DNA of 64,000 nt, taken from NCBI GenBank assembly GCA_951406725.2, contig OX597835.1, positions 31,806,001 to 31,870,000 of the forward strand, read 5' to 3'. Positions within the stretch are counted from its first letter, which is position 1, and each line of letters begins with the position of its first letter. Positions 4,085 to 63,535 of the stretch are shown in pieces. Made by a program: the position numbers and the translations under genes. The DNA is from Octopus vulgaris. Taxonomy: Eukaryota. The notes under the pieces are model-generated. The model had not been told where the DNA came from, searched no databases, and was given only the letters and a program-made list of their open reading frames with translations.

Positions 4085-4363
4085 ATATATAAAAAAGGAA
4101 ATGAAGAAAATGCTGACAAATAATTGAAGTAATTTAAGTAATTTAATTAGGTGAAAGTTCTTTTTACCGGTTGCGCATTTGTTATGCTTATCAAAATATA
4201 AAAGAGAGATTAGAGTTCCTTTCTTAAAGGAACTCTAATCTCTCTTTTATATTTTGATAAGCATAACAAATGCGCAACCGGTAAAAAGAACTTTCACCTA
4301 ATTAAATTACTTAAATTACTTCAATTATTTGTCAGCATTTTCTTCATTTCCTTTTTTATATAT
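4085..4363. mobile_element. perfect fold-back element (about 138-bp arms, 3-nt loop), Penelope pLTR-derived
   Basis: 4091 pairs with 4357 and 4222 with 4226, with no indel. Lies among (TA)n. Each arm carries a hammerhead-like motif. Confidence 0.8.
4243..4290 (+). ncRNA. minimal hammerhead ribozyme-like motif (U3-A8, GCAA variant); mirror copy on - strand in left arm
   Basis: tt-TTGATAA-GCAT-aacaa-ATGC-GCAA-CCGG-TA-aa. Confidence 0.6.
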
Positions 4364-6267
4364 ATATATATATATATACATATATATACATACATATATG
4401 TATATGTATGTATATAACATTTCGAACGTAAAGAGGTTGCTCTTTCACAAGGATGTATTCTTCGAAGTGTACACCGATTTAGCTCAATGTTGGATTTAAT
4501 TAATTTGTGTTAATAGTAGTGTTAACGCTTAAGATGTTCAAATAAAACCGTTTTAGATATTTCCATCCGTTCAATAAAGGAGAATAGAATTTGAAAAATA
4601 TAATAGAATGGAAATGGAGAGTTTGAAGAGAGAAAAGTCAATTTGAATTTTTATCAATTTTATTCACTGAAGAGATTTTTACCTTTAAAATGCATAATGC
4701 AATCTTAATTTAAAACTATAAATGAAGGCAAGAGACTGAAACCTACTATATGAAATTGACTATTATATAAATACATTTATTTTTCTGTGTTTAAACTCTC
4801 CATTTTCTTTTCCTTATATTATATTACATTACATCATATACCCAGATTACACGCGCAAATACACTTAGAACGTTGCGGCAAACGAAACAACTCCCTGGCG
4901 TGATAATGATAATTCCAGCTCGTCTCCTTTTGATAATAATGAGGATGATGATGATGATGATGATAATAATAATAATAATATATATTATATTATATTATGT
5001 TATATTATATTATATTATATTATATTATATATATTTAGTACTATATTGGATTTAGAGAATCGTGCAGTTATCATAGAAAGCTCATCTTACTGACTCGGCT
5101 ATCAGCCCACGTATTCAATAAAAAGAAGTGTAATAGAGCGTGTCCATGTAAATATAATCTACAAGATCTAATCGATGAAAATATTTTTATGTGGTGTATA
5201 TATCAACCATAAAGTCAGGTAGGATCAGAAGTGAATATATATTTATTTTACCCTGTGGCATCATTAAGGGTACGGCCATTTCGCCATTTACTTCATGTAG
5301 TATTAATTTCAGTACTGAAGCTATTATGCGTACGTCTTCGAATTAATATGCATGATTGGCATTATACATTAGAATTTTATATTCATAAATCAATGCATAT
5401 AAAGAAAGGTAGCGTCACGGATGACTGGAATATCATGGTAAGACTACAAATTCAACACAAAACAAAGATATATATTAACCTTCCATGCCTCTTGGGTTTA
5501 TATTATATGCATATATACATACATACATGCGTACATACATACATACATACATACATACATACATATATGTATATATATATATATATATATATATATATAT
5601 ATATATATATATATATATATGTATATGTATATATGTATGTATATATATATGTATGTATATGTGTCTATATATTTATGTATGTATGAATAAACAACGAACT
5701 TTTATACATGCTTTACATGAAATATTGATACGATAATGATGAAGTGAGGATGATTATGATGACTATGGTGATGATGATGATCATCATCATCATCATATTA
5801 ATAATAATAAGTGGAGGAGGGTTAGAAGAAGAAGAAGAAGAAGAAGAAGAAGAAGAAGAAGAAGAAGAAGAAGAAGAAGAAGAAGAAGAAGAAGAAGTAC
5901 AACAACAACAACAACCCTTTCTACTGGAAGCACAAAGCCTCATATTTGGCAGCAGAGATTAAGTTGATTACATCGACCCCAGTCCGAATGCATGAAATGC
6001 AGTTAACCTCGGCGGAATTTGAACTTAGAACGTTGCGGCAAACGAAACACCTCTAAGCATTTCCCTGGCGTGATAATGATAATGCCAGCTCGTCTCCTTT
6101 TGATAATAATGAGGATGATGATGATAATAATAATAATAATAATAATAATAATAATAACAACAATAATAATAATAACAATAATAATAATAATAATAGTAAT
6201 AATAATAATAATAATAATAATAATAATAATAATAATAATAATAATAATAATAATAATAATAATAATA

Positions 6268-7800
6268 AATGAAGGCTCTGATATTCAGCATGCAAGGGAT
6301 AAATGAAGGCTCTGGTATTCAGCATGCAAGCATGAAAGAGAAAATCAGGAAGGAATGTTATAGGAGAGTTCGTGCAGTCCTGAAATCTGAACTAAATGCA
6401 CGTAACAAGGTGTTAGCTATAAATTCCCTAGCAGTTCCAGTTGTTACTTATAGCTACAATGTGTTGAACCGGAATATGAGTGAAGTAAAGAATATAGATA
6501 GAAAAATACGCAAGCTGCTGAGTTGTAATAGGATGCACCACCCAAAGGCAGACGTAGATCGCCTTTACCTTCCCAGAGCCCAAGGAGGTCGAGGCCTGAT
6601 CCAATTTGAACTAGCTTACAAAGCAACCACAATTGGACTGGCCAAATATCTCGAAATATCGAATGACTGGATGCTAAAGCTCGTGGAAAATCACGAGAGA
6701 CGAAAGAAGCTTCATTCTATCATCAAGGAAAGCAAACAATTTGCTATTGATCTCGTGCAGGATACCCAAACTGAACAACCCGAGGGAAGTACAGCAACTA
6801 TTGTTGCAAAGAAGGTGAAAATGATGGCAATGAAAAAAGCGCACGAGCAATTGGCTGATAGGTGGGAGGAGAAACCTCTGCACGGCAAATATGTGACCCG
6901 CAGCAAACAAGCTGATGTTGACCAGAAGCAAACCCATCAGTGGCTGCGGAGCTCAGGGCTAAAAGCAGAGAGCGAAGGTTTCATCCTGGCTGCTCAAGAC
7001 CAAAGCCTATCAACCCGGAACTACCAGGCCAATGTGATGAAAAATGGAGCAGACCCAAAATGCCGATTCTGCAACGACATGATTGAAACAGTGGACCACC
7101 TAATCTCTGGATGTAAAGTCTTAGCACCAGTGGAGTATAAATTAAGACATGACAGAGTTGGCCAATATCTCCACTGGCTAATAAGTCGGCATTACAATAT
7201 CAAAACTGCCGACAAGTGGTATAATCACCACCCTGAGGCTGTAACTGAAGGAGAAAATGTAACCATTCTGTGGGACTTTCCAGTACATACAGACCGAACC
7301 ATCAAGGCCAATAAACCAGATATTGTTGTGAAAGACAAAAACAATAAAGTTTGCTTATTAATCGACATGAGCATCCCCTGTGATCATAATATATCAGCGA
7401 AAGAGTTTGACAAGCTCAGAAAATATAAAGACCTACTCATTGAAATTGAGAAAATGTGGCATCTCAAGGCGGTTACAATACCAGTGATCGTAAGAGCACT
7501 AGGAATGATCAAGAAGGGAACCGAAAATTATATGAGAATGATCCCTGGCTTACCATCCCTGCAAGAAGTGCAAAAGATTGTCTTAACTGGTACATCACAC
7601 GTATTGAGAAGAGCATTGTCGATGTGAGAACTGTTGCTGCTCATGTATTTTAATTTAACTTTAAAAAAAAAAAAAAAAATGAACGAACTACTGAGTTTGG
7701 TTTAATGGCCTACCAATATACACTATGAGTTTCTTTGCCCTAGGAGTCGGGAAGACACTCGGCAAGAAATGGAAGAAAATTTGAAAGAAGAAGAAAAAAG
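6268..7800 (+). mobile_element. 5'-truncated R4/Dong LINE inserted in (TAA)n
   Basis: ORF plus a 3' UTR homologous to 2640-2720. (TAA)n at 6123-6267 and 7801-7866. Confidence 0.92.
6269..7627 (+). CDS. R4/Dong LINE ORF C-terminal half (RT thumb, CCHC zinc knuckle, PD-(D/E)xK endonuclease), 5'-truncated, frame intact
   Basis: 452-aa ORF: INSLAVPVVTYS, HHPKADVDRLYLPRAQGGRGL, AAQDQSL.TRNY, CRFC..ETVDHLISGC, RHD, KPDI, IDMSIP, KLRKYKDL. Confidence 0.95.
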   Translation: MKALIFSMQGINEGSGIQHASMKEKIRKECYRRVRAVLKSELNARNKVLAINSLAVPVVTYSYNVLNRNMSEVKNIDRKIRKLLSCNRMHHPKADVDRLYLPRAQGGRGLIQFELAYKATTIGLAKYLEISNDWMLKLVENHERRKKLHSIIKESKQFAIDLVQDTQTEQPEGSTATIVAKKVKMMAMKKAHEQLADRWEEKPLHGKYVTRSKQADVDQKQTHQWLRSSGLKAESEGFILAAQDQSLSTRNYQANVMKNGADPKCRFCNDMIETVDHLISGCKVLAPVEYKLRHDRVGQYLHWLISRHYNIKTADKWYNHHPEAVTEGENVTILWDFPVHTDRTIKANKPDIVVKDKNNKVCLLIDMSIPCDHNISAKEFDKLRKYKDLLIEIEKMWHLKAVTIPVIVRALGMIKKGTENYMRMIPGLPSLQEVQKIVLTGTSHVLRRALSM

Positions 7801-61948: not shown

Positions 61949-62286
61949 ACACACACACACACACACACATATATATATATATATATATACACAAAATTAT
62001 TAATTAATCTTAATTATATTTAATTTATATAAAAAATGTTATGTATTGGATTAAGTCTTTCTTTGTTTCATTTGCATAATCATGGTTTTGTCTCTAATTA
62101 TATATATATATATATATATATATATACACATACATATATTGATATATGCATATATATATATCCCCATATATATATACATATATATATATATATATATATA
62201 TATATATATATATATATATATACATACATATATTGATATATGCATATATATATATATGCCCATATATATATATACTTATATATATA

Positions 62287-63535
62287 TTGGTAAAACGGTA
62301 AGATAACAAAAGAAAGAGACCTCAATATTATGTAAATAGAGGAACTTTATCTATACAATAATATGTTACATTACTCGATAGTCAAGATAAAACTCTGAGT
62401 TTCAGATGCCGAAGTGGGAATCCACGACATCTCTTCGGGTATCTGGCTATTTGAAAACGCTATGAAAAACTACCGTTATACAAAGGGAAATTACTGTGTT
62501 ATAACTCTGCTTGCCTACGTACTTATACATCGCTCGCATTTTTCGCCATAAAAATTATATAAAAATGCATAAAAAATATATGAAAAATATATAAAAATAT
62601 ATAAAATGTGTGATGAGATAAAAGAACCTTCTTGGGACATAACATAGAAAGCATGTTCTATCTGTTTTCTTTAGGGGACCAAAAACGTAACAGAAATGTG
62701 TCACATATGGGCATGATCCGAAAAGTTCCGTCCTTGCGTTTAGACATGAACAGTTCTGTTTAGACACAAGTTCTGTCCTTGTGTTTAGACATGAACAGCT
62801 GTTTTCTTGTTGTGTTTTTTGTATGTTATGTTTGATTATGTTCATGCAGGAATAAAGAATTGTGCCCGCTAAATGGAGCTTGCATGTCCAAGACCATCAT
62901 ATATGAAGCTACCGTAGACTCTATAACCACTAAAGACACCGTTTCGACGAAGATAATACGTGGGCCTTACAGAGGGTAACTTCAAGGCCAGATTCAATAA
63001 CCATACTTTGAGCTTTAGGCACTGGAACAAAGAAAAGCGACACAATTATCTAATCATATTTGGTCTTTAAGAGATAAAGGTGTCGATTATAACATTCATT
63101 GGAATATTTTGGCCAGATGTAAGCCCTATACCAACGGCAGCGGAAGGTGCGGTCTATGCGACATGGAGAGATGGCTTATCTGGAAAAGCAGCTTAGACCC
63201 TACTACATGTCTAAACACAAAGACAGAACTTTTCCAATCATGCCCCCATGTGACTAAATTTCTGTTACGTTTTTGCTCCCCTAAAGAAAACAGATAGAAC
63301 ATGCTTTCTATGTTATATCCCAAGAAGGTTTTTTTTACCTCATCACACATTTTATATATTTTATATATTTTTTATATATCTTTTATGTATTTTTATATAA
63401 TTTTTATGTCGAAAAATGCGAGCGATGTATAAGTACGCCAGATAACCGAAGAGATGTCGTGGATTCCCACTTCGGCATCTGAAACTCAGAGTTTTATCTT
63501 GACTATCGAGTAATGTAACATATTATTGTATAGAT
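62287..63535 (+). mobile_element. Penelope-like element fragment (second GIY-YIG type) with inverted pLTR in front
   Basis: 62840-63297 reads CPLNGACMSKTIIYEATV..YVGLTEGNFKARFNNH..LSNHIWSL..CGLCDMER..CLN...ELFQSCPH (frameshifted). 62350-62745 is the reverse complement of 63205-63535. Confidence 0.9.
63441..63498 (+). ncRNA. hammerhead ribozyme motif (U4C, extended stem II); mirror copy 62386-62443 on -
   Basis: GATAA-CCGAAGA-GATGTCG-tggattcccactt-CGGCATC-t-GAAA-CTCAGAG-TT-TTATC. Confidence 0.7.

Follow-up and report, generated by a model that had tools for sequence, protein, structure and literature searches.

The hammerhead ribozymes of Penelope-like elements (PLEs) are kept almost everywhere, cleave poorly and are dispensable for insertion in vitro. 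A 64,000-nucleotide (nt) stretch of the Octopus vulgaris genome, here called the window (positions 31806001-31870000 of contig OX597835.1 in the 2.8-Gb assembly GCA_951406725.2, which has 227 contigs), holds a set of hammerhead-like motifs and raises the question of what these motifs are and why several of them depart from the consensus core. They are probably the 3' ends of several PLE families, mostly 5'-truncated or inverted in (TA)n, which carry family-wide core variants and would function as dimeric ribozymes, slow and aided by protein, with relaxed selection on their speed. The feature is real and the system is of a known kind; the part that appears new is the occurrence of family-wide core variants in intact, high-copy PLEs.

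Hammerhead-like motifs in the window

In the initial annotation of this DNA, 13 loci were described as sharing one hammerhead architecture. The window was searched with a relaxed descriptor consisting of stem I, a core N3-N4-G5-N6-N7-N8-A9 with positions 3 and 8 paired, stem II, G(A/C)AA, a palindrome and UH, with at most one core change tolerated beyond the 3-8 pair. The motifs exceed a shuffled TA-rich background: the descriptor finds 12 matches, against 0.83 ± 0.79 (maximum 3) in 100 local dinucleotide shuffles, performed in 250-nt blocks so that the TA-rich background of this microsatellite-rich sequence (GC content 35%) is preserved. A stricter descriptor gives 4 matches, against 0.2 ± 0.6 in 30 shuffles. 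With loci named by the window position of core nucleotide 3, the 12 matches comprise nine of the 13 loci (4254, 8801, 14358, 22763, 24706, 36470, 42147, 60991 and 63446), the mirror copy at 4194, a previously unlisted canonical motif at 56212, and 51435, which was rejected as a chance match in a microsatellite. The shared architecture thus stands for nine loci, and the other four (23999, 28118, 28646 and 43112) fail the descriptor and are decayed or doubtful. The nine loci and 56212 show a type-I junction of stems I and II, with helix III replaced by a palindrome. A scan against Rfam gave no hammerhead among the 150 matches listed out of 467, and those listed are microsatellite-driven and lie under the gathering scores. 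Repeats and inverted pairs in the window were taken from a masked self-BLAST. The motifs are the following.

4163..4196, minus strand: mirror copy of the 4254 motif (descriptor match at 4194 and self-BLAST)
4252..4285, plus strand: hammerhead-like motif with U3-A8 and A13C, CCGG palindrome (relaxed descriptor)
8798..8833, plus strand: U3-A8 motif of an older Neptune-like subfamily (relaxed descriptor)
14354..14388, plus strand: canonical-core motif with an extra base after A9, CG palindrome (relaxed descriptor; the family majority is U4C)
22720..22770, minus strand: G3-C8 motif, stem II of 5 base pairs (bp), stem I of 6-7 bp, ATAT palindrome (both descriptors)
23994..24040, plus strand: 23999 motif, a decayed copy; its family is mostly CTGA-N-GA, with a mainly canonical core
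24702..24739, plus strand: U4C motif, short stem II, GCAA loop, 7-nt odd palindrome (relaxed descriptor)
28114..28185, plus strand: degenerate motif, canonical core, long stem II with a broken base, G17 (28118; fails the descriptor)
28642..28712, plus strand: degenerate motif, canonical core, CATG palindrome, mismatched stem II base (28646; fails the descriptor)
36468..36560, plus strand: canonical core, long stem II with U.U at its base, CGATCG palindrome, 2-bp stem I (36470; relaxed descriptor)
42144..42181, plus strand: U3-A8 motif, GAAA, CCGG; 3' pseudo-long terminal repeat (pLTR) of a young Neptune-like family (relaxed descriptor)
43109..43150, plus strand: hammerhead-like stem II, A9C, without palindrome, in the inverted pair 42954-43268 (43112; fails the descriptor)
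56158..56217, minus strand: canonical-core motif, 8-nt palindrome, U.U at the stem II base, not among the 13 loci (56212; relaxed descriptor)
60959..60996, minus strand: A6U motif, free N7, CG palindrome (60991; relaxed descriptor)
62385..62444, minus strand: mirror copy of the 63446 motif (self-BLAST)
63440..63499, plus strand: U4C motif, extra U before GAAA, 7-nt odd palindrome; 3' pLTR of a young Hydra-like family (relaxed descriptor)

The consensus core, CUGANGA/GAAA/UH or its U3-A8 form, fits 14358, 36470, 42147 and 56212. It is not found at 4254, 8801, 22763, 24706, 60991 and 63446, which are therefore classed as variants. The 4254 motif, the 3' end of a Neptune-like family, forms the right arm of an inverted pair (4092-4356) whose other arm has a 28-nt tail, and its adjacent stem I is only 2 bp long; stem I of 8801 is likewise 2 bp, or 3 bp with an outer pair. 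The 24706 motif lies inside the inverted pair 24630-24772, and the 22763 element is about 250 nt long with an inverted 5' piece. The doubtful core of 43112 is the same in all three rows of its family, one of which is the window itself and one an independent copy from a 1-Mb genomic sample. The 56212 motif has one relative, in stretch L244.

Core variants at the level of families

The core changes (G3-C8, A6U, U4C, and A13C together with U3-A8) are majority states of families and mostly not decay. Copies were counted over the whole genome with exact patterns in which the test positions were left free, reversed-pattern controls giving 0; core letters were tallied over the first 100 places, all on contig C1, with mirror copies counted twice. 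The A13C and U3-A8 family of 4254 has 1,817 copies, and its tally is 96 C13, 4 U13 and 0 A13. The G3-C8 family of 22763 has 6,545 copies (93 G3-C8, 0 C3-G8) and the 14358 family 7,756 (70 C4, 28 U4, 2 A4), while C4 is present in 14 of 17 copies of the 24706 family. The most abundant family seen is the A6U family of 60991, with 15,817 copies (96 U6, 2 A6, 1 C6, 1 G6); here N7 is any base and the rest of the motif is fixed, as expected of a hammerhead. Among loci of the two young families picked by protein alone, with the query locus included in each set, the motif is present at 28 of 30 Neptune-like loci, all 28 with U3-A8, and at 29 of 30 Hydra-like loci, all 29 with C4. The U4C, A6U and A13C variants of the initial annotation are thereby upheld as family majorities, save for A13C at 8801: in 28 aligned relatives of that motif (L331, misoriented, was left out) position 13 is A in 25, G in 3 and C in none. 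This A13C is a private mutation and plain decay, and the candidate explanation that it is held in common with 4254 was rejected on the same count.

A census of 999,900 evenly spaced genomic bases in 100 stretches (the 1-Mb sample), with positions 3, 4, 6, 8 and 13 left free, gives 29 matches, against 6, 11 and 3 in three shuffles. Positions 3 and 8 are paired in 23 of the 29 matches and in 9 of the 20 shuffled ones, and the pairs are C-G (17), U-A (4) and G-C (2), the same three that had been noted in the window; covariation of these positions across families is real. The paired cores divide into 4 canonical, 6 A6U, 6 U4C, 4 U3-A8, 2 G3-C8 (one mirror pair) and 1 A6G. With canonical cores in only 4 of the 29 matches, the earlier statement that canonical searches miss most of these motifs is correct. 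Stem II shows the same behaviour in sister Neptune-like families, where its sequence differs yet stays paired (GGTC/GACC, AGTC/GACT, GCAT/ATGC) between elements whose proteins are 72% identical.

These observations bear on the view that the variants reflect neutral drift in dispensable, dying ribozymes, each having arisen once in a master copy and hitch-hiked. Such drift is very unlikely. It agrees with the good proliferation of PLE clades without canonical hammerheads (PMC8557442, Craig et al. 2021), with the coexistence of canonical and variant subfamilies and with the plain decay of 23999 and of A13C at 8801. Drift would not, however, co-change positions 3 and 8 to G-C or U-A, nor would it rebuild stem II while sparing G5, A9, G12 and A14, and the 14358, 24706 and 63446 families, whose stems differ, all have U4C, which creates a CpG.

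Further hammerhead families are observed outside the window (L208:9925, L228:8172, L293:5891, L264:9979 and L299:197, in scan-strand positions); they include U3-A8 motifs with CGCG or CATG palindromes and canonical motifs with 6-nt palindromes.

Carrier elements

The motifs are PLE minimal type-I hammerhead motifs, as initially proposed. Three remnants of open reading frames (ORFs) lie upstream of motifs in the window.

7953..8240, plus strand: Neptune-like GIY-YIG endonuclease remnant, 62% identical to an intact 784-aa ORF
40633..41421 (also recorded as 40633-41418), plus strand: 5'-truncated Neptune-like ORF with thumb, Cys linker and GIY-YIG, 96% identical to the intact 784-aa ORF
62839..63297 (also recorded as 62839-63294), plus strand: 5'-truncated Hydra-like ORF, endonuclease end (ORF comparison)

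The distance from remnant to motif is 561 nt for 8801, about 730 nt for 42147 and 152 nt for 63446. The window fragments of both PLEs gave nothing in a Pfam search. Genome searches with the last two kinds of remnant gave 136 scored matches of 96-100% identity for the Neptune-like ORF, many with 784-aa open frames, and 150 of 91-100% identity for the Hydra-like ORF, many open up to 717 aa. Intact elements of both kinds stand in tandem. The Neptune-like tandem has a period of about 4,380 nt, with its motif about 155 nt upstream of the following start codon; in the Hydra-like tandem the period is about 2,580 nt and this distance about 260 nt.

The 784-aa protein matches RVT_1 above the Pfam cut-off (E 3.4e-8) and GIY-YIG just under it (E 3.7e-4). 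The element has a reverse transcriptase (RT), a C-terminal GIY-YIG domain, a CX2-5CxxC linker and CCHH, in line with the Neptune clade, together with an upstream ORF1 and Neptune-type motifs read by eye. By these motifs the family appears Neptune-like, with Nematis as a possible alternative. In one copy (L152:4217-5557, minus strand) ORF1 is a 446-aa stop-to-stop frame that overlaps the RT ORF in another frame and has no credible Pfam match. The 717-aa protein has no Pfam match at E 0.1, and its best 120 homologs are 41-51% identical and unnamed. It contains every Hydra-clade motif in the list of Craig et al. (RWK, DKT, CxCX5C, CxxC, CxH, no CCHH; read by eye), and the element is shorter than 3 kb and targets (TA)n, as the clade requires. 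The family is accordingly termed Hydra-like from its motifs; an assignment of this ORF to Nematis was dropped after the comparison with that list.

In total, five families are tied to RT and GIY-YIG ORFs, with the motif in the pLTR. The 4254 (A13C) family has long copies with a 765-aa sister ORF (L347), 72% identical to the 784-aa ORF and held between widely spaced inverted pairs; its classification as a non-autonomous mini-element of about 200 nt, based on 25 short loci, was rejected when these copies were found. In the 60991 (A6U) family, L375 contains an upstream GIY-YIG ORF (25% identical, E 1e-20). The sequence shared upstream of the motif among family copies varies in length between some tens of bases and the 1,200-nt limit, as 5' truncation predicts, and most short copies are 5'-truncated or inverted PLE inserts. 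In the G3-C8, 14358 and 24706 families the copies sampled are short, with at most about 250 nt of shared upstream sequence, unrelated neighbouring repeats aside.

It follows that the non-autonomous mini-element system proposed initially is mostly wrong, since five families are ORF-linked and intact tandem elements carry the same variants. That the motifs belong to dedicated non-autonomous ribozyme mini-elements of the retrozyme type, mobilised in trans, is extremely unlikely. The short copies of the three last-named families (28, 12 and 10 sampled) are in its favour, and animal retrozymes have been proposed as non-autonomous PLE derivatives (bioRxiv 10.64898/2026.07.22.740005). Against it are the five ORF-tied families with their continuous range of 5' truncation, the precedent of the A13C family, which looked non-autonomous in 25 loci until its long copies turned up, and the window itself, in which no head-to-tail arrays of 150-450-nt ribozyme units were found.

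Insertion site, tails and the predicted cut site

The adjacency to (TA)n noted initially is confirmed in all families but one. In seven families (TA)4 occurs within 250 nt downstream of 84/85, 65/67, 60/63, 53/66, 20/28, 10/12 and 10/10 copies, far above the 1268 of 5000 random points (25%) that serve as control; in an eighth it occurs in only 3 of 11 copies. For seven of the eight families, the junction with (TA)n falls at one or two constant distances from the core, between 60 and 180 nt beyond it; the preferred 3' ends are two, at 80-140 nt past the core, and correspond to the PLE tail. A (TA)n bias, tails and inverted 5' copies are described for PLEs by Craig et al. (PMC8557442). As every insert with a motif also extends 60-180 nt past it, reverse transcription would have started downstream of the motif and passed over the cut site.

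Among 58 family copies from the 1-Mb sample and the window, not one has its start 3 nt or less from the predicted cut site, in a test that leaves out the 24706 family, whose query included (TA)n. In the set of all loci, which is biased by selection for ribozyme-bearing loci, 8 of 451 starts lie within 3 nt of it.

The intact cut sites of the inserts are pertinent to the idea that the ribozymes are fully active in vivo, with the protein or hidden tertiary contacts compensating for the core changes and cleavage, perhaps with circularisation, being required. This idea is quite unlikely. The inserts retain the cut site and 0/58 start there, and mutations of A13 are strongly harmful to hammerhead cleavage. 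Mutations at position 6 have likewise been reported as strongly harmful (PMC3088659, Perreault et al. 2011), which weighs against full activity of the A6U family. On the other side, the covarying pairs of 3-8 and stem II imply that an active fold is selected for, natural core variants can be active (PMC3088659), and a PLE protein activates its own hammerhead (PMC11167929, Frangieh et al. 2024).

Proposed mechanism

According to the interpretation favoured here, of slow, protein-assisted dimeric ribozymes, the element RT-endonuclease would nick (TA)n, and reverse transcription would start downstream of the ribozyme and copy through the motif. The template must then be uncut at that moment, which would penalise a fast ribozyme and tolerate a slow one. 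Tandem transcripts would occasionally be cleaved into unit RNAs by two motifs paired through their palindromes, with help from the element protein, and selection would act on the fold and little on the rate. The behaviour of the anole PLE hammerhead is consistent with such a scheme: it cleaves only with the PLE protein, its dead mutants still insert, and reverse transcription initiates downstream of the ribozyme with uncut RNA as template (PMC11167929). The dimer activity reported for PLE hammerheads is low (PMC4209133, Cervera and De la Pena 2014).

The families would differ in activity. Those with U3-A8 and G3-C8 likely still cleave; natural U3-A8 is listed together with U10.1.U11.1 in PMC3088659, and C3G/G8C gives a partial rescue in PMC11167929. 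The U4C and A6U families likely cleave slowly. U4C is less active in vitro, yet supports viroid infectivity, and a natural A6C is slow (PMC3088659). The A13C family may be without any cleavage.

In two-copy folds the palindromes are paired and stem II is intact in five of nine motifs (4254, 42147, 24706, 63446 and 36470). The mirror copies are inverted duplications on the opposite strand, so that each places an antisense copy beside the ribozyme and cannot be a dimer partner; by supplying the antisense strand they would sequester the motif and not activate it.

Several observations speak against slow but selected ribozymes in all of these families. Two-copy folds of 14358, 22763, 60991 and 56212 show other pairings, minimum-energy folds of isolated motifs contain the full hammerhead stems only in some, and the A13C family has merely 2 adjacent stem I pairs. 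The 3-8 pair is broken to C3.A8 in 4 of 28 copies of the older U3-A8 subfamily. Canonical U4 coexists with the variant in the 14358 family (28/100), and canonical U4 relatives of the Hydra-like family occur in the assembled-contig runs X1 and X16. Decay is also seen, in the 23999 copy and in the private A13C at 8801. The copies sampled of the G3-C8, 14358 and 24706 families (28, 12 and 10) included none linked to an ORF. Finally, a single master-copy mutation amplified thousands-fold gives the same counts, and copy number is therefore not independent evidence of selection.

The A13C family in particular invites the explanation that the fold is kept for a non-catalytic task, either binding of the RT-endonuclease or palindrome pairing of two templates, and that catalysis is vestigial in several families. 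This explanation is unlikely, with evidence on both sides. Despite its core change and weak stem I, this family is abundant and also young, with at least 40 scored loci 100% identical over 126-127 nt, and it keeps a compensated stem II and the palindrome. In vitro, insertion proceeds without cleavage, and a dimer is predicted for the PLE protein (PMC11167929); inverted pairs, the outcome expected from two templates, are common among the inserts. By contrast, all confirmed families retain G5, A9, G12, A14, UH and the 3-8 pair, as catalysis requires, and the protein-binding region lies downstream of the ribozyme according to PMC11167929. Slow catalysis under relaxed selection for speed remains the preferred interpretation.

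A more far-reaching and less probable proposal is that hammerheads mostly off consensus in independent ways (G3-C8, U4C, A6U, A13C), in elements that are intact and amplifying, function as a protein-gated switch or scaffold, deliberately weakened to permit copy-through by the RT and palindrome-paired to load two templates. If true, this would be the first natural high-copy series of G3-C8, A6U and A13C hammerheads.

The genome offers a natural allelic series, in which sister families whose ORFs are intact have different letters at positions 3/8, 4, 6 and 13 but preserved stems. As the core changes likely slow or stop self-cutting, the series constitutes a natural test of the purpose of the motif. 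Descriptors of the form CUGANGA/GAAA undercount such ribozymes, the four exact patterns alone amounting to 31,935 sites, and PLE families called ribozyme-less may carry variant cores.

Other features of the window

Short palindromic elements lie between (TA)n runs at 54231-54383, 54498-54605 and 28383-28425, and may represent the inverted ends of further PLE families in which no ribozyme was detected. A 184-nt tandem unit (49494-50263 and 44848-45185; 3.2 copies) derives from the commonest short interspersed repeat of the window, and no hammerhead was detected in it. Remnants of the C-terminus of a non-LTR retrotransposon occur in inverted orientation at 2803-3837 and 6269-7630; they are 77% identical, each is flanked by (ATT)n arrays, and they contain a 452-aa frame with a weak zf-RVT match. 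Also present are a 1.1-kb direct repeat (52411-53496 and 57232-58357; 88% identity) with an internal 145-nt duplication, and a 21-nt minisatellite (47102-47339; 11.3 copies) that is open in two frames. The fragment at 21801-22235 on the minus strand presumably belongs to a mariner-type transposase, and that at 33607-34316 is taken to be a C-terminal fragment of L1/Tx1 type, both by motif; a 1,146-aa frame in L276 is of the same presumed L1/Tx1 kind.

Comparison with known systems

The motifs share with the PLE hammerheads of PMC4209133 the type-I form, the palindrome for helix III, the extra base after A9 and the pLTR position, and also the prevalence of solo truncated copies and opposite-strand pairs. 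That study reports U3-A8 in Schistosoma, with about 1,300 matches, and the Hydra row of its Fig. S3 has a U before GAAA and an odd palindrome. Published features thus include U3-A8, the palindromes, the U that precedes GAAA and the additional base following A9. In contrast, all cores in Fig. S3 are CUGANGA or UUGANNA, with no G3-C8, U4C or A6U, which are majority states in high-copy families here; the GAAA column is GAAA throughout except for one AGAAA, and no cephalopod is listed in that figure.

The Neptune-like family resembles the Neptune clade as described in PMC8557442 in its 784-aa RT with C-terminal GIY-YIG, GxKF, DKG, the CX4CxxC linker, two Cys in GIY-YIG, the overlapping upstream ORF1, the (TA)n bias, the tails and the inverted 5' copies. 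It differs in its U3-A8 hammerhead core; a sister family adds A13C, and A6U is found in a family that is only distantly related. The Hydra-like family corresponds to the Hydra clade in its single 717-aa ORF, its unit of about 2.6 kb, RWK, DKT, CxCX5C, CxxC and CxH, and in the lack of Cys between GIY and YIG, the (TA)n insertion and the presence of a hammerhead. However, Hydra-clade hammerheads are canonical in PMC8557442 and the family here is U4C; its motif has no base between A9 and stem II and a bulged U before G12.

As in Poseidon PAc of Anolis (PMC11167929), there would be two downstream reverse-transcription starts that give rise to the tail, with uncut RNA as template. G3-C8 is an engineered partial rescue in that element and occurs only as an engineered rescue in the passages compared from PMC11167929, PMC8495972 and PMC3884650, whereas here it is natural and present in 6,545 copies. 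In the literature compared, which included the hammerhead reviews PMC6765202 and PMC6155905 and had the work of Lünse et al. and the supplements of Craig and Perreault outside its coverage, there is no natural G3-C8, A6U or A13C PLE hammerhead and no octopus hammerhead. The motifs are also like the stem-III-short PLE hammerheads of Lünse, Weinberg and Breaker (as cited in PMC6765202) in their short palindromic stem III and putative cleavage as dimers, and the Lünse et al. set may already list some of these core variants. A 2026 study of Octopus vulgaris repeats (PMC13282606) reports 31 recently active Penelope-like families, and its main text is silent on ribozymes. Non-LTR retrozymes (PMC7229834; bioRxiv 10.64898/2026.07.22.740005) have type-I hammerheads and a proposed PLE origin in common with the present motifs, but they form non-coding head-to-tail arrays, whereas the octopus motifs are dispersed, truncated or inverted PLE ends.

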